Virus record (IMG/VR): IMGVR_UViG_2522572023_000006
DNA from: a virus
Lineage: Duplodnaviria > Heunggongvirae > Uroviricota > Caudoviricetes
Strand: one strand, 5' to 3'
Length of the DNA stretch: 50,140 nucleotides
The notes beneath the pieces are model-generated. The model did no database searches. It was not told the DNA's origin and worked only from the letters and a program-made list of their open reading frames with translations. Both the position numbers and the translations under genes were made by a program. Below are positions 35,228 to 42,103 of the stretch, in pieces; position 1 is the stretch's first letter, and the number at the start of each line of letters is the position of its first letter.

Positions 35228-35383
35228 TTACTCCTCAGGTTCGTAAGCTGTGAAGACAGCGACCTCCGTCTGGCCGGTTCGGATTCGTACCTCGCAGAGG
35301 TCTTTCCTCGTTACCAGTGCCGTCACTATGACGGTTAAACAGATGACGATCAGGGCGATTAACATCGCCTTTTGCTGCTTCAT
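35228..35383 (-). CDS. hokD: Hok-family type I toxin (HokD/RelF-like)
   Basis: 51-aa product MKQQKAMLIALIVICLTVIVTALVTRKDLCEVRIRTGQTEVAVFTAYEPEE; single TM helix and conserved Hok C-terminus; an in-frame upstream extension exists in the ORF track. Confidence 0.8.
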   Translation of the reverse strand: MKQQKAMLIALIVICLTVIVTALVTRKDLCEVRIRTGQTEVAVFTAYEPEE

Positions 35384-35629
35384 AGCCTGCTTCTCCTTGC
35401 CTTTCGGCACGTAAGAGGCTAACCTACGTTTGTGAAGCATAGATTGGGCCTCAGATTAATGTTAAACGTCTTGCAGGACGCGTAATGTTAACTGGGGCTT
35501 TTCTCTATCTGCCTTTTGGTGTTCATGCCTGAGACAGATAGCCTCAAGCACCCGCAGCAATTCTACTTAACTCTCGCTTTACCGCAAACCGTTTTTACCC
35601 GATATGGGAATTCCCATATCGTAATGAAT

Positions 35630-35849: not shown

Positions 35850-36563
35850 TCATTGGCGCACCTCCTGCGGCGGTTCTGGTAGCGGCATCCAGTCGGTTAC
35901 ATTGCGGCTCTGTGTTTCGAAAAATTCATCACCATTACGGACTACATCAAAAAACTCACCGTCTCGATATTGCGCATAAAGAACGAATGCGCCATCACAT
36001 AAAATAATTACGTGCTGACCATCATCCGGCATTCGCTCACTACAGCTTATCCAACCATCCGGAGTTACCGGATAGTTGGTTGACGTTTCCGAGATTTCCC
36101 GAAAATTATTGGTTGACGAACCCTTATTTTCCCGAAAGTTTCCAGCCTGAAGCATGGCGGCGCGGCAGGCGTTCCATATTTCGGCAGCAATATCGCGCTC
36201 GCTATCGGTTAATTTGTACGTTGAAACATAGCCAGAGAGCATTTCTACGTTTTCCGGAGTTGCTTCTTCAGGCACTACCGGTGCTGGCTCACGTATTACA
36301 GGCTCGCCCATGCGTGATTCTCCCTGCGCCTCTTTCACCATGTGGTCATTGATTTGCTCCAGTCGCCGAACGTGCTCATCAGCTTCAAGCGCTCGCCGTT
36401 TCCAGATGGACAGGTCTTCACGAGCGCCCTGATATGCGTCACCGTATTCGCCGTTAAATACTGGCGCTGGCGGGGCGATGCGTCCAAGCAACTTATTTAC
36501 CTCTTTCGCCATCGCGTCATATTTATCTAAATAGCGATTAGCTTCTAAGCAGACTCGGTGCAT
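35850..36563 (-). CDS. Ea22-like / DUF551-domain protein
   Basis: 237 aa; C-terminal DUF551-type signature (TDWMPLPEPP) with acidic coiled-coil N-terminal part. Confidence 0.5.
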   Translation of the reverse strand: MHRVCLEANRYLDKYDAMAKEVNKLLGRIAPPAPVFNGEYGDAYQGAREDLSIWKRRALEADEHVRRLEQINDHMVKEAQGESRMGEPVIREPAPVVPEEATPENVEMLSGYVSTYKLTDSERDIAAEIWNACRAAMLQAGNFRENKGSSTNNFREISETSTNYPVTPDGWISCSERMPDDGQHVIILCDGAFVLYAQYRDGEFFDVVRNGDEFFETQSRNVTDWMPLPEPPQEVRQ

Positions 36564-37024: not shown

Positions 37025-37381
37025 TTATTCAGTTCTGGATTTTGTCACCCTGCGTATCCGCGCTTTCACGTTACGCTCAATCTGAATTAGCTTTTCTATA
37101 TTTCTCCGCCTTTCCCGTTCCTCCTGGCGCAAGATCCTTACATCATCTGCCAGTCTGGTTTCTCTTTTCGCCACAGAGAGCATCCAGTCAAATGGCTCCA
37201 CAACTGCACCGCAGATTTTACAGCGGACCTGACGCTCTTTTTCGTCAACCCGGACAGAGGCGTGATGGCAATATGGTCTTTCCGATGGCTCATAGAGAAA
37301 ATTAACCTGATTACGTGGGTCATCCTCTTTTACCGGAAATAAAACGATATTGCTTAACTCATCTTCTGGTTTTATTTCCAT
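37025..37381 (-). CDS. Hypothetical protein with putative zinc-ribbon and basic coiled-coil tail
   Basis: 118 aa; C-H-H ... C-x2-C cluster (CHHASVRVDEKERQVRCKICG); Arg/Glu-rich C-terminus. Confidence 0.4.
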   Translation of the reverse strand: MEIKPEDELSNIVLFPVKEDDPRNQVNFLYEPSERPYCHHASVRVDEKERQVRCKICGAVVEPFDWMLSVAKRETRLADDVRILRQEERERRRNIEKLIQIERNVKARIRRVTKSRTE

Positions 37382-38077
37382 GCTCCTCTCCTTTGATGCG
37401 AATGCCAGCGGCGCGGATTGCAGCGATGACTTCAGAAACTTTGTATGCCATTACCGTTTGGTAATCATCGTGAAAATCTGTTCGATGAAGCATGCTGCTA
37501 CGTTCTGGGAGCGATATTTCCCGTGCTTCCAGTTCTGCAATGCGATTCTCTGCGGATTCCAACGCCGCAACCAATTCGTCTACAGTTCCGGCAGCTTGCA
37601 GTGCGTAATCGGTAATAGCCATCTCATGATCAATTTCAGTACCGTTCTCATTCGTTGAGGTGATAGCAAAATAATCAGAGTCGATTTCGTTATCAGCTAA
37701 GTGGCGTAGCGTATCGGCAACAAGCCGGCCGTTTTCGATTAGCAGCTTCCCTTCCGTAAGCGCAATCTCCTCGTTCTCCTGGTCGCGTGATTTGATGTAT
37801 TGCTGGTTTCTTTCCCGTTCATCCAGTAGTGCCAGCGCAACATTTGGATTAAAGGCAGCAATAAATTCAGCGTTTGCGTAAGCCTGAGCATCTGTTTCAA
37901 CCAGGCAGTTAACGTGACATTCTGCAATTACGCCACCGGGTTCTCCTTTCCATTTTTGACAAAAAAAACTCCTGTTATATTCCCATGCTGATTGCCCGAT
38001 GTATGCCCTACGATGTAGCATCCTTTAGTTGCTTTCTCTGCTGCTTCACGAAGCGCCTCATAGTTAACCTCTCTCAT
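37359..38077 (-). pseudogene. Ea22-like gene split by a frameshift at a T8 homopolymer
   Basis: An ATG at 38077 overlapping the upstream stop (ATGA), with AGGAGG RBS, opens a 47-codon frame that ends shortly after a T8 run (plus-strand A8 at 37961-37968); the Ea22-like C-terminal ORF 37359-38021 continues in another frame across the same run. Confidence 0.5.
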
Positions 38078-38370
38078 TGAGCCACCTCCTGATAAATCAC
38101 CGCATGTCCCAGTTTCTCCGCCAGTGCCAGCTCTGCCTTAGCGCCCGCTGACCGCTGCCAGCCATTCAGCATGTAAATCGCATCCACGCAACGAATCATT
38201 GCCATGCAAATATCCATGTAGTGCGGCTGTGTCAGCCCGTCCGGAAGTACTGCCGGGTTTAAGACGGTATGCCCTTCCCGTTTCAGTTCCTCTTCCGCCT
38301 TGTGAAACGCCTCACGGTTGAAATTTTCATATCCCGTCATTGGACCGGCAATATAAACTCTCACCCTCAC
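38074..38370 (-). CDS. DUF4406-like protein (nucleoside 2-deoxyribosyltransferase-like fold)
   Basis: Conserved N-terminal YIAGPMTG motif; probable GTG start preceded by AGGAGG; exact start uncertain (38364 or 38370). Confidence 0.5.
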   Translation of the reverse strand: MRVRVYIAGPMTGYENFNREAFHKAEEELKREGHTVLNPAVLPDGLTQPHYMDICMAMIRCVDAIYMLNGWQRSAGAKAELALAEKLGHAVIYQEVAQ

Positions 38371-38759
38371 TCCATCACCTCCTGAAAGTTTCCCCGATAG
38401 AACGCCAGCACACGCTGCATAACTTCGCTCTGGCGGCACTCACGACAAATTATGTTCTGCCGTCTGTTGTAACGACGTATTTCTCCGTCAGGTAACTTTC
38501 GAATCAGTGTCGGGTCAGCAGCCTTCTCCGGTGTCTTACGCCATACGCGATACGCCTGCTCTGATGGAAATACCCCGCAACCAGAGAGCCAGACATCACC
38601 ACTGGCCGCAAGCGCACCAGATAAACGACGAATAGCGGTCTTACTGACACCCGTTTTATCTGCCAGTTGTCGAAAAGTTTCTCGTCCGCTCAGGCGCACG
38701 AATTCCACAATGCGCGCCGTCACTTCTTCCCGATCTTCTGGTGTAAATACTTTTGCCAT
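38367..38759 (-). CDS. Hypothetical HTH-containing protein
   Basis: 130-aa product from MAKVFTPEDRE with RBS GGAGG; helix-turn-helix-like segment (FRQLADKTGVSKTAIRRL) and CxxC near the C-terminus. Confidence 0.45.
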   Translation of the reverse strand: MAKVFTPEDREEVTARIVEFVRLSGRETFRQLADKTGVSKTAIRRLSGALAASGDVWLSGCGVFPSEQAYRVWRKTPEKAADPTLIRKLPDGEIRRYNRRQNIICRECRQSEVMQRVLAFYRGNFQEVME

Positions 38760-38774
38760 AAGCGCCTCCGGCAA

Positions 38775-39545
38775 TCACTTTTCCGATACAACACGGCGGG
38801 AAGAATCAGTAATCTGTCGAACAATATCCCGGTGCTTGTTCAGCTCCCGCAGCGCGGCGCAGACACGCTCCCACTTCTGAACCTGACCTTTTGCCCGGCG
38901 CAGCTCGCGGTTAGCCACATGCAGCGATGGTAAAATCAGACCATCCGGATGCTTTCTGGTGAACGACGGCTGTGACTGCACTGTGACCGCCACACTTTCC
39001 GTTTTTATTTCTTCCTGTGTTTCCGCTTCCCGGACTGGTAACGCAACACCTGTTGGCTGAGGAAAGGCTTTACTATCGGTTTCCGTTACCGATGCAGCTT
39101 CCGGCTCTGCCGGTAAATCAGCGCCCGGTATGCAGTAACGAAATTTACCGTTCTGATTAACGCGTGCCAGCCGCCCCGTTGCGGTTACCACCGCCAGCGT
39201 GGAGGCAACCTTGCGAGTACTGACGCCGAACTTACCCGCCAGTTCCTCACACGTTTTAGCACCATCCTGACCGATAAACTCAATCATCATGTCTGCGGTA
39301 ACTTTTTGTTCGACCTCCCCGGTCAGCATATCCTGTGCTTCAGATTTTACTGGCCGCTCTTCGGTTACCCGGGATTCACCTTCGCCAGCCAGAAACCAGG
39401 TGTGACCCGTTTTATCAACAACGCCATTTTTTTTGAGTTCCCACAGTTCGTTGAGAACTTCTTCACGGCTGATATCAAGCCGCGCCGCCAGTTCAACAGA
39501 ATTGGCTTTACCCATCGCTTTCAGTGCATGCAATACGGTTTCCAT
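38775..39545 (-). CDS. Hypothetical protein with two tandem winged-helix-like domains
   Basis: 256 aa; two repeats of a DNA-binding-like module (SVELAARLDISREEVLNELWELKKNGVV and TCEELAGKFGVSTRKVASTLAVVTATGRLARV); RBS GGAGGA. Confidence 0.45.
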   Translation of the reverse strand: METVLHALKAMGKANSVELAARLDISREEVLNELWELKKNGVVDKTGHTWFLAGEGESRVTEERPVKSEAQDMLTGEVEQKVTADMMIEFIGQDGAKTCEELAGKFGVSTRKVASTLAVVTATGRLARVNQNGKFRYCIPGADLPAEPEAASVTETDSKAFPQPTGVALPVREAETQEEIKTESVAVTVQSQPSFTRKHPDGLILPSLHVANRELRRAKGQVQKWERVCAALRELNKHRDIVRQITDSSRRVVSEK

Positions 39546-39574: not shown

Positions 39575-40315
39575 TCAGTTCCTGTGCTGGCTGACGTTCG
39601 GACGCCAGCTCTCCCAGTTAAACGTCACCCAGCGACCACCGTTCATGGACATGCGGTCCATCACCCGCTCGCCGAGAAGTGTATTCATCGCTGCATGGTT
39701 AAGATTTGTCAGCATCCCCACACTGAGTAACGATGCCGTTCTGCGGTCAACAATCTGATTCAGCGTGACCTGCTCATTACGCGTATCCCGTTGCATGCCA
39801 ATTTCATCCAGTACCAGCAGGTCAACGCCACACAATCCCTGCAAAAATTTTTCGCCCGAGTTTTTGTTGTCGTAGCTGCCATGTAACGCCAGCATCACAT
39901 CCGCCACTGTTATCACAATCACACTGCGACCTTTCGCCAGAAGGTGGTTGCCAATAGCCGCCGCCAGGTGGTTTTTTCCTGTGCCAGGCCTGCCACTGAA
40001 AACAAAATTCGTACAGCCGCCTTCCAGCTCTGCCGCAATGGATTTCGCCTGACTCAGGGCATGGCGCTGACCATCGTTCTGCACCCGGTAGTTACCGAAC
40101 GTACACTTCCGGTGAAGCGGCTGGATACCGGAGCGGTTAATGATTTTTTCAACCCGCGTCTGATGATTCAGACGATTAACCTCCTCGCTTCGCTTACGCC
40201 CTTCAGCAAGCTGCCATTCCCGCCACTCCGCCACCGTACGGTACGGAGGGATTGCATCCTGCGGCACAAATCTGCTGACTCTTGCCAGAACACCACCTGA
40301 CGTAATGTTTTTCAT
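39575..40315 (-). CDS. Replicative helicase loader (DnaC/IstB-like AAA+ ATPase; phage P-equivalent)
   Basis: 246 aa; Walker A GRPGTGKNHLA and Walker B LLVLDEIG; immediately downstream of the O-like initiator. Confidence 0.8.
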   Translation of the reverse strand: MKNITSGGVLARVSRFVPQDAIPPYRTVAEWREWQLAEGRKRSEEVNRLNHQTRVEKIINRSGIQPLHRKCTFGNYRVQNDGQRHALSQAKSIAAELEGGCTNFVFSGRPGTGKNHLAAAIGNHLLAKGRSVIVITVADVMLALHGSYDNKNSGEKFLQGLCGVDLLVLDEIGMQRDTRNEQVTLNQIVDRRTASLLSVGMLTNLNHAAMNTLLGERVMDRMSMNGGRWVTFNWESWRPNVSQHRN

Positions 40316-40321
40316 GGTGCG

Positions 40322-41290
40322 CTACCCCCTGAAACCCGGCGGAATTTCGGTATCCGGTTCAGAAATATGATTCACGCAACGCTGCGCGGGCGAACGCCCC
40401 AGGCGGATAACCAGTTCATCCCATTTTTCCCGGAGTTTTGCCGGACTCATGATGTTTTTTACCCAGAACGAATCCCGTTGAACACGCCCAAACATTTCAC
40501 AAATCTGTCGGTGACTACGTCCATCCAGCATACGCATCATGCGCACATCATTCGCCCAGGTCGTCCAGTTAGGCTCTCTGGGGCGTGATACCTCCCCATC
40601 ATCACTGGCGGCCTGTTCATACAACGCAACAACCCGTCCCCAGATCCACTGTGCACACGTCAAATCCTCCCGGGTTCCCCACTGTCGCTTTGGTACATTC
40701 CAGGTATGCGCATCCGGGTGTTTCTCCAGAAATCGCTCGACCGGTGATGCTTGTTTTTCGTCCGGCAGTGAAACGTCCGGACAAGAAGATCTTTTATCTG
40801 ACGGATCAGGTTTTAATACTGACGGATCGGGGTCAATCATCGCCCCCCTAATCGGCAGTTTTTTATCAACAGTTGATCCATCAAAATTTGACGGGTCAAC
40901 CGTTGAGGGGTCAATATTTGACGGGTCAACTGTTAACGGGTCATTTTTTGCCGGGCTAATTTTTCTTTTCGGTTTATATGACTCACGCGCCGCCGCCGCA
41001 GCTGCTTCGAGTTTTTCCACATTAAGCCGATAGATATTGCTTACATTACGCCCACCGACCTTACGCTCTTCCTTCGTCAGCCAGCCCTCTTTCGCCAGTT
41101 CTGCAATAGCCGATTTCACTGTGGATTCACTTCTTGCACCGATCTGACGCCGGATAGTTTCAATGGCAGGCCATGACACGCCCTCGTCATTGCTGTAGTC
41201 TGCAAGACGGGCCATAACCGCCACCCTGGATAAGATCATGCCGGTGAAGGCGCACCCTTCCCAGACAAGACCATGAAGCTTGCTGCTCAT
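40322..41290 (-). CDS. Replication initiator (lambda O-like) with origin iterons inside the gene
   Basis: N-terminal HTH-like region; central repeated peptide (DPLTVDPSNIDPSTVDPSNFDGSTVD) encoded by DNA iterons; start assigned to internal ATG with G-rich RBS. Confidence 0.7.
   Translation of the reverse strand: MSSKLHGLVWEGCAFTGMILSRVAVMARLADYSNDEGVSWPAIETIRRQIGARSESTVKSAIAELAKEGWLTKEERKVGGRNVSNIYRLNVEKLEAAAAAARESYKPKRKISPAKNDPLTVDPSNIDPSTVDPSNFDGSTVDKKLPIRGAMIDPDPSVLKPDPSDKRSSCPDVSLPDEKQASPVERFLEKHPDAHTWNVPKRQWGTREDLTCAQWIWGRVVALYEQAASDDGEVSRPREPNWTTWANDVRMMRMLDGRSHRQICEMFGRVQRDSFWVKNIMSPAKLREKWDELVIRLGRSPAQRCVNHISEPDTEIPPGFRG
40820..40945. repeat. Origin iterons (about 15-bp-periodic GACGGGTCAA-type repeats)
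   Basis: TTTGACGGGTCAAC occurs exactly at 40887-40900 and 40917-40930, with degenerate copies on both sides, followed by a T-rich tract. Confidence 0.65.
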
Positions 41291-42003: not shown

Positions 42004-42103
42004 AGCTACTCCTTAGTAAACACAGCAAAGAATACCCACAGGTAAACAAAAGTCAATACCCACAGGTTGTTTACCTTGCGGTAATCGCATCTATTATTTA
42101 CCT
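42004..42103. promoter_or_regulatory. Immunity-switch intergenic region with operator-like repeats and divergent promoters
   Basis: Direct 12-bp repeat ATACCCACAGGT at 42032-42043 and 42056-42067; inverted element CAGGTAAACAA / TTGTTTACCT; -35-like GTTTAC (42069-42074) and -10 TATTAT (42092-42097) ending 6 nt before the repressor ATG. Confidence 0.55.

Follow-up and report, generated by a model that had tools for sequence, protein, structure and literature searches.

Three accessory genes after the helicase loader of a lambdoid prophage: a YdaW-type protein, a Ren homolog and a predicted DNPH1-like nucleotide protein

The IMG/VR virus record IMGVR_UViG_2522572023_000006 (50,140 nucleotides, Caudoviricetes; this whole stretch is called the window in what follows) carries, downstream of its replication genes, a block of three genes that a first-pass annotation, made from the letters alone, had described as having no clear phage role. 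With the positions of the window, the block is composed as follows.

38074-39545, minus strand: three open reading frames (ORFs) that fill the interval exactly, by ORF reading
38775-39545, minus strand: DUF1627/YdaW-family protein of 256 amino acids (aa), by sequence reading and RefSeq
38367-38759, minus strand: DUF977/Ren-like protein, 130 aa, ATG start, by sequence reading and RefSeq
38074-38370, minus strand: DUF4406 protein, 98 aa, GTG start, by sequence reading and RefSeq

For DUF977, a longer ORF opening with TTG was rejected, since both the sequence reading and the RefSeq annotation place the start at the ATG. The three-gene block was borne out in every structural detail. The remark that these genes have no demonstrated phage role was also correct, and a literature search by names and PF numbers found no functional study of DUF1627, DUF977 or DUF4406. 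The DNA of the block is 100% identical to that of a prophage of Escherichia coli O145:H28 RM12761, in which RefSeq already annotates the same three DUF proteins. At least 80% of a 1.6-kb block query was present in 363 of 5426 complete E. coli genomes (about 7%), and parts of it in 2791 (about half). The block is an ordinary, common and mosaic stretch of a lambdoid nin-like region whose DUF annotation was already known. Single-sequence searches of the PDB gave nothing significant for any of the three proteins and NCBIfam no informative match; the only repeat in the block was one chance-level pair of 18 nucleotides, and no Rfam family was found in or near it.

The inheritance of the three genes was followed in 80 IMG/VR loci with a DUF4406 protein at least 91% identical to the window copy, 75 of which were informative. 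The complete trio DUF1627-DUF977-DUF4406 was present in 35 of them, whereas 25 had DUF977-DUF4406 directly after the replication genes without DUF1627, and 15 presented DUF1627, an unrelated 84-aa helix-turn-helix (HTH) gene (phrog_323) and DUF4406. Other combinations occur as well: Shigella Stx phage POCJ13 carries DUF1627 and the Ren-like gene without DUF4406, and phage pPE4 carries DUF1627 alone. More distant DUF4406 homologs (about 49-62% identical) were located in the early region of a Mu-like phage, in the vicinity of genes for recombination (RecT/YqaJ or ExoX-like), Dam and integrase, and in other, unannotated contexts, and neither DUF977 nor DUF1627 was seen beside those examined. Measured against the refuting condition named in the first-pass annotation, the outcome is mixed: co-occurrence is frequent but not obligate, all partial combinations were seen, so that the three genes are not lost together, and one of them matches the known gene ren. 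In the same loci, the upstream DUF977 and DUF1627 proteins were 49-100% and 59-100% identical, respectively, to those of the window while DUF4406 stayed at 91% or above. Variation of this kind is typical of lambdoid mosaicism, in which exchange takes place where genes meet. We believe, with a probability of roughly 0.6, that the block consists of three independently inherited accessory genes, encoding a YdaW-type protein, a homolog of Ren and a nucleotide enzyme of minimal DNPH1-like form. What is shown is how the genes are built, which families they belong to, the folds predicted for them, the residues that are conserved and how often the genes occur together, while all biochemical activities and phenotypes are inferred.

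The DUF977 protein matched PF06163 (E 1.7e-40, 138.6 bits, cut-off 22.1) and also phrog_142, the model of the 'Ren-like exclusion protein' (E 2e-42), which lambda Ren itself matches at E 1.6e-41. Aligned directly by BLASTP, the two proteins are 29% identical (E 3e-9). Both are small, begin with a winged helix and are encoded in the pR unit just past the replication genes, and they have the C-terminal motif ECRQSxxMxRVLAxY in common; the conserved C-terminal motif of the DUF977 protein is NIIxxExRxSxxMQRVLAFY. The order O-P-ren of lambda corresponds in the window to O-like, DnaC-like, DUF1627, DUF977, with the difference that here DUF1627 separates the Ren-like gene from the loader gene; in the 25 loci mentioned above, DUF977 follows the replication genes directly. 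The window protein is also longer than lambda Ren (130 versus 96 aa), the insert lying between the winged helix and the C-terminal motif. On these matches, we assign the DUF977 protein to the homologs of lambda Ren, as a distant relative whose similarities agree with one another. The first-pass annotation had described it as an HTH/CxxC protein, and indeed both features are present, but the CxxC (CRECRQ in the window) is not conserved among homologs (CRESRR, CLECQK, FRECRQ, and KECRQ in lambda Ren), so that a zinc site is unlikely and this candidate was rejected. The homolog in phage Rac-SA53 is annotated LygF.

The gene ren of lambda follows P in the pR unit and is dispensable for growth. Toothman and Herskowitz reportedly found in 1980 that it lets lambda escape Rex exclusion. 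A preprint (10.1101/2021.04.19.439022) describes two-hybrid interactions of the Rex proteins with O and Ren, and considers ren likely to be replication-related. The homology therefore gives DUF977 a known genetic context, that of escape from Rex exclusion and possibly of replication. By homology, the window protein would act as lambda Ren does, as a non-essential product encoded beside the replication genes that allows escape from Rex-type exclusion. With the 'HTH/CxxC' gene recognised as one of them, Ren-like genes are widespread in Stx- and Rac-type prophages. The 84-aa phrog_323 protein ('transcriptional regulator, D5-like'), which has two HTH-like repeats, fills the DUF977 slot at 5603-6007 of locus L033 and in 14 other loci, and its gene also ends in a start/stop overlap with DUF4406.

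The DUF1627 protein matched PF07789 (E 2.8e-87, 290.8 bits, cut-off 28.1) and phrog_630 (E 7e-135). Two tandem winged-helix-like domains had been claimed for it, and they are supported by sub-threshold HTH matches at residues 3-50 and 87-137 and by the AlphaFold2 (AF2) model, which depicted a winged HTH topology at 1-52 and 84-138 (predicted local distance difference test, pLDDT, of 72-90 in these blocks). The same model shows disordered linkers at 56-79 and 146-204, both acidic, and a long helix at about 204-255 that bears the most conserved motif of the family, ELRRAK..KWERVCAALRELNKH. Its mean pLDDT was 64, from a shallow alignment (sequences 73-93% identical to the window protein), and only the two winged helices and the C-terminal helix are above low confidence. 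Foldseek searches with it found only generic tandem winged-helix proteins (SelB, ScpB, ESCRT-II, MarR). The two winged helices may bind nucleic acid or protein, and the conserved C-terminal helix probably makes the protein oligomeric. Residues 73-124 are weakly similar to residues 5-55 of the DUF977 protein (BLASTP E 1e-4; phrog_142 6e-6), which, at the level of sequence, suggests an old duplication or a domain exchange between the second winged helix and the Ren-like N-terminus.

Homologs of DUF1627 were found almost only in E. coli, Shigella and Salmonella sequences (64-99% identity), and the family appears confined to prophages of these bacteria. In E. coli K-12, YdaW of the Rac prophage (b1361) is 58% identical to the window protein over the first 154 residues of YdaW. 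The Rac deletion removed everything beyond the second winged helix of YdaW, including the conserved C-terminal helix. K-12 Rac kept only this truncated ydaW and has lost the genes for DUF977 and DUF4406. In contrast, phage Rac-SA53 has the order ydaV-ydaW-lygF-rac19-ead, as the window does, with the same DUF1627, DUF977 and DUF4406 families. The window DUF1627 protein is the full-length, intact form of K-12 Rac YdaW. In a genome-wide screen, overexpressed K-12 ydaW was among the blockers of RcaT, the toxin of retron-Sen2 (preprint 10.1101/2020.06.22.160242), and the gene that did so corresponds to the N-terminal fragment of DUF1627 with its two winged helices. Part of the value of the block is that it holds the intact form of a protein whose truncated copy blocked a retron toxin.

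These data also bear on a different view, in which the three genes are a single counter-defence module directed against an abortive-infection system (for example Rex-type exclusion or type II retrons), in which DUF4406 would serve as a decoy or poison subunit and YdaW would block a toxin. The effectors of type II retrons, among them RcaT of retron-Sen2 and the Ec86 effector, consist of nucleoside 2-deoxyribosyltransferase (NDT)-like and winged-helix domains fused in one protein (PMC7736814); the window presents the same two folds, but on separate proteins of adjacent genes and of phage origin. If one adds to this the Ren homology, which ties DUF977 to Rex escape, the effect of ydaW on RcaT, the predominance of the trio among the 75 loci and the weak resemblance of the second winged helix of DUF1627 to the Ren/DUF977 N-terminus, a common function is conceivable. 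However, each of the genes is found without the others in many phages, and DUF4406 is present in thousands of phages whose hosts are unrelated to Rex or retron defences. Moreover, ydaW was one of many hits in a screen and was not followed up in that preprint, and PADLOC returned nothing for DUF4406 and only generic HTH-level matches for the DUF1627 and DUF977 proteins. The annotation of the 19.6-kb stretch around the block contains no reverse transcriptase, and no Rfam family mapped near it, a search that would reveal a retron noncoding RNA only if Rfam has a model for it. We consider a dedicated counter-defence module improbable.

The DUF4406 protein matched PF14359 at E 9.9e-38 (128.9 bits, cut-off 22) over positions 2-91 of the 91 of the model, a match that spans the sequence YIAGPMTG, and it also matched phrog_355, named 'nucleoside 2-deoxyribosyltransferase'. 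The match to the Pfam family Nuc_deoxyrib_tr was marginal (E 0.085), and the DUF4406 profile found in the PDB only the NDT of Trypanosoma brucei (2a0k, E 0.003). The AF2 model (pLDDT 92.7; predicted template modelling score, pTM, 0.86) was more informative: the top Foldseek matches in the PDB were NDT, human and rat DNPH1, MilB and BcmB, all with a probability of 1.0 and template modelling (TM) scores normalized by the query of 0.63-0.75, and many viral DUF4406/NDT models in BFVD matched at TM about 0.9. DNPH1, also called Rcl, is a 2'-deoxynucleoside 5'-phosphate N-hydrolase, and MilB and BcmB are CMP N-glycosidases. The NDT-like fold that had been proposed from the YIAGPMTG motif, a flavodoxin-like alpha/beta fold, is confirmed by this structure prediction.

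Alignments of 26 and 11 sequences from diverse members of the family disclosed a set of invariant or near-invariant residues, namely Y7, A9-G10-P11, G14, N39-P40-A41-x-L43-P44-D45-G46, S75, G77 and E81. Among them, E81, S75 and G77 were invariant, Y7 was invariant or nearly so, and G10-P-M-T-G14 was near-invariant. In a profile alignment, E81 pairs with the Glu of the GTAFEVG motif of the T. brucei NDT, and this enzyme has an Asp at the position of S75. The spacing of Y7, G10, G14, S75, G77 and E81 is that of Tyr24, Gly27, Gly31, Ser98, Gly100 and Glu104 of human DNPH1, an enzyme that binds the 5'-phosphate with Ser98, Gly100 and the loop of residues 29-31 and uses Glu104 as its nucleophile (PMC10483697). 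Because it is this phosphate-binding motif that is matched, the sequence points to a nucleoside 5'-monophosphate, rather than a nucleoside, as the ligand. On the other hand, DNPH1, MilB, BcmB and NDT have about 130-160 residues and five strands, and DUF4406 about 98 residues and four strands; its invariant NPAxLPDG motif is its own. On the predicted structure, DUF4406 is best described as a minimal DNPH1/NDT-like protein with a predicted activity. The G10-x3-G14 loop, together with S75 and G77, would most likely bind a nucleoside 5'-monophosphate, and Glu81, positioned by Tyr7, would cleave the N-glycosidic bond. As a candidate nucleotide-pool enzyme, DUF4406 could plausibly act on adenine or N6-methyladenine nucleotides, since DUF4406 is linked elsewhere to N6-adenine methyltransferases, as described below.

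The family is large and phage-borne. It comprises 21,633 clusters at 50% identity (E at most 1e-3), and 344 GenBank phage records match it, with hosts that include Vibrio, Arthrobacter, Mycobacterium, Aeromonas and Pseudomonas. Links to the nucleotide pool were found in several of its members, such as an overlapping dUTPase gene, a nearby deoxynucleoside monophosphate kinase and an actinophage copy annotated as MazG-like, and some DUF4406 proteins are fused to a dATP/dGTP diphosphohydrolase domain. Ten long DUF4406-containing representatives had no Pfam domain beyond DUF4406, and their extra length probably stems from gene calls that read through. Among the characterised phage enzymes of the NDT superfamily, the closest is DmtZ, a dAMP-specific N-glycosidase/deoxyribose-5-phosphate transferase of PurZ0 phages that edits the nucleotide pool and, as some DUF4406 proteins are, is linked or fused to dNTP pyrophosphatases (PMC12884076). 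DmtZ differs, however, in its size (about 145 aa), in its full Tyr6/Asn77/Glu103 triad, in lacking a Pfam model and in belonging to Z-genome phages, whereas the prophage studied here gave no sign of a modified genome.

In other phages, DUF4406 is often found close to DNA amino-methyltransferases. We grouped 305 DUF4406 loci into 48 clusters at 85% DUF4406 protein identity and counted amino-methyltransferase-like ORFs around the gene. Their density per 10 kb was 1.89 at 0-1 kb, 0.74 at 1-3 kb, 0.26 at 3-6 kb and 0.16 at 6-10 kb, i.e. about 12-fold higher within 1 kb than at 6-10 kb. A methyltransferase lay at 1 kb or less in 18 of the 48 clusters (binomial P 2.5e-6), and in 17 of these it shared the strand of DUF4406; with clustering at 70%, a neighbour at this distance was present in 12 of 28 (P 2.3e-4); in 12 of the 48, a same-strand methyltransferase was at 300 bp or less. 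The neighbours belong to PF05869 (Dam), PF05063 (MT-A70), PF02086 (D12-class) and PF01555 (N6_N4), with one PF02384-like, and no C5-type methyltransferase was detected among them. The adjacency was seen in loci L091, L096, L102, L103, L107, L142, L151 and L160, among others. These figures are to be read knowing that the profile models used for detection were seeded from the neighbours, with an unbiased motif screen adding few more, that the clusters are not phylogenetically independent and that early accessory regions may gather both kinds of genes. Even so, the block has led to an adjacency that involves at least four methyltransferase families and is far above expectation, in a huge phage-borne family.

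The prophage encodes an enzyme of this kind.

31053-32111, minus strand: DNA amino-methyltransferase (PF01555, E 6.7e-44), 5.96 kb downstream of the block

A tentative extension of the above, which we hold to be possible but rather doubtful, is that DUF4406 is a large family of minimal DNPH1-like nucleotide N-glycosidases or binders that work with phage N6-adenine/N4-cytosine methyltransferases. By analogy with DNPH1, which removes 5hmdUMP (5-hydroxymethyl-deoxyuridine monophosphate), a possible role would be to destroy N6-methyl-(d)AMP coming from methylated DNA; alternatively, it is possible that DUF4406 removes the by-product S-adenosylhomocysteine. In the prophage, the partner under this proposal would be its own PF01555 enzyme, which is possible by the same analogy. 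Were the linkage functional, it would connect phage DNA methylation with a nucleotide-pool step not described before.

The adjacency also touches on the speculation of the first-pass annotation that a nucleotide-modifying fold with two DNA-binding proteins could relate to DNA modification or anti-restriction. In such a scheme, the NDT-like enzyme would make or exchange a modified base, and the two DNA-binding proteins would do the targeting. An N-glycosidase/transferase fold, a strong link to DNA amino-methyltransferases in other phages and a PF01555 methyltransferase in the same prophage are all compatible with it. But the NDT-superfamily enzymes that have been characterised act on free nucleosides or nucleotides and not on DNA (PMC10483697; PMC12884076), the 19.6-kb stretch around the block has no annotated base-exchange or hypermodification genes, and the two HTH proteins are unlinked to DUF4406 outside E. 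coli-type lambdoid phages. In addition, the methyltransferase is 6 kb away, after Q, and wholesale replacement of a base is hardly to be expected in a prophage that its host replicates passively. For the block as a unit we therefore regard this explanation as very unlikely; what survives of it concerns DUF4406 alone and is indirect, through the methyltransferases adjacent to it elsewhere.

Several observations weigh against the three genes being independent and having the functions proposed. The trio is the commonest arrangement near this DUF4406 allele, and some functional interplay is possible. The link between DUF977 and Ren consists of the PHROG model and one pairwise alignment, and lambda Ren fails to match the Pfam DUF977 model at a threshold of E 0.01. 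DUF4406 does not have the C-terminal segment that, in DNPH1 and NDT, completes the active site of the neighbour subunit (Ser128' in DNPH1), as it ends 17-18 residues past E81 and Ser128 is 24 past Glu104. For the third catalytic residue, which lies about 24 residues ahead of the Glu (Asp80 in DNPH1, Asn77 in DmtZ), DUF4406 offers no evident conserved equivalent: D54 is variable and, by sequence reasoning, the register of Asp80 is occupied by a mostly conserved Cys56, although the invariant D45 of NPAxLPDG might be a substitute. DUF4406 could thus be a binding protein rather than an enzyme. Furthermore, the window copy is not next to a methyltransferase, and the searchable literature yielded no demonstrated biochemical activity for any member of DUF1627, DUF977 or DUF4406.

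The organization of the surrounding region was read from the sequence and from consensus scans, with these features.

42029-42056, minus strand: promoter-like site upstream of the cro-like gene, candidate equivalent of pR (consensus scan)
40322-41290, minus strand: O/YdaU-like initiator (phrog_391, E 5.5e-107; RefSeq)
39575-40315, minus strand: DnaC/YdaV-like loader (phrog_50, E 4e-79; RefSeq)
38367-38370, minus strand: shared GTGA in which DUF977 stops and DUF4406 starts, preceded by CAGGAGG (direct reading)
38074-38077, minus strand: shared ATGA in which DUF4406 stops and the ead/Ea22-like gene starts (direct reading)
37359-38077, minus strand: ead/Ea22-like gene directly downstream of DUF4406, split by a frameshift into ORFs of 49 and 220 aa

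The order of genes is cro-like, YdaT-like, O/YdaU-like, DnaC/YdaV-like, DUF1627, DUF977, DUF4406, ead/Ea22 and small ORFs, followed by DUF551, hokD/sok, DUF968, RusA, Q and the DNA methyltransferase. In the RM12761 prophage, too, the genes run in this order from the cro-like one to Q. Direct reading of the sequence showed a 29-nucleotide spacer with GGAGG between the DnaC-like gene and DUF1627, and one of 15 nucleotides, also with GGAGG, between DUF1627 and DUF977. The overlapping and coupled starts that had been noted earlier are real, and, since the ATGA overlap joins DUF4406 to the ead/Ea22-like gene, the coupling runs past the block as it was reported. At its 3' end, DUF977 has about ten codons, FYxGNFQEVM(E/A), that were near-invariant even across alleles only about 50-60% identical; this segment holds the Shine-Dalgarno sequence of DUF4406 (38367-38400 in the window; junctions in loci L004-L083). 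The DUF977-DUF4406 junction is likely a recombination junction, or one constrained by translational coupling.

On the coding strand, the consensus scan detected no promoter- or terminator-like site inside the block or directly flanking it, which is a weak negative. The only minus-strand promoter-like match upstream of the block was that at 42029-42056; the counts of promoter and terminator matches in these scans were at chance level, and the assignment of this site as pR is by position only. With no internal promoter or terminator and with coupling that continues into the next gene, a separate three-gene operon was rejected. The block is an internal stretch of a long early-right (nin-like) unit between the DnaC-like loader and Q. 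Of the single operon put forward by the first-pass annotation, co-transcription and translational coupling stand, but the block is only an internal part of that unit. The early-right stretch of the window is the counterpart of O-P-ren-nin-Q of lambda, which is transcribed from pR. We propose that the block, sitting in the nin-like region of a prophage of the Rac/Stx type, would be transcribed after induction or infection within an early-right operon running from the cro-like gene through the replication genes to Q, and would be translated by coupling, first across the short GGAGG spacers and then through the GTGA and ATGA overlaps.

A position directly after the helicase loader or initiator, fixed in all E. 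coli-type loci, raises the question of whether the block extends the replication module and is no collection of morons, DUF1627 and DUF977 being auxiliary factors that bind the origin or the proteins of the O-like/DnaC-like module and DUF4406 supplying or balancing nucleotides. The tandem winged helices of the DUF1627 AF2 model and the probable relation of ren to replication, with Rex proteins interacting with Ren alongside O (10.1101/2021.04.19.439022), would fit such a role. Nevertheless, lambda ren is dispensable, whether the three genes are there does not depend on the allele of the replication genes (with the same genes downstream, the O-like and DnaC-like proteins vary from 52 to 100% and from 74 to 100% identity, respectively), and DUF4406 is far from replication genes in other phages. 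We consider this alternative unlikely, and retain that of three accessory genes inherited independently.

The genes downstream of the block and the small RNAs of the prophage are listed next.

37025-37381, minus strand: 118-aa protein with a strong phrog_1621 match
35850-36563, minus strand: DUF551 gene, a few genes downstream of DUF4406
35228-35553, minus strand: hokD toxin ORF and sok antitoxin RNA (RF01794, 118.5 bits), downstream of the block
30947-31006, minus strand: tRNA of the prophage
30619-30827, minus strand: STnc100 small RNA of the prophage
30557-30618, plus strand: AgvB small RNA of the prophage
44140-44191, plus strand: DicF small RNA of the prophage

The two parts of the ead/Ea22-like gene matched PF13935 at 37928-38077 and 37359-38021, and related phages carry intact or different Ea22 variants after DUF4406. 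The 118-aa protein, which has a weak, below-threshold match to a TFIIB-type zinc ribbon at residues 36-73, co-varies with the window DUF4406 allele in many IMG/VR loci (92-100% identical). DUF551 is also near DUF4406 in an unrelated Mu-like phage (locus L086, 6602-7543), and it may be another recurrent neighbour of DUF4406 or merely a common early accessory gene. Finally, DUF1627 serves in a preprint of 2026 as a marker gene near Pas small RNAs.

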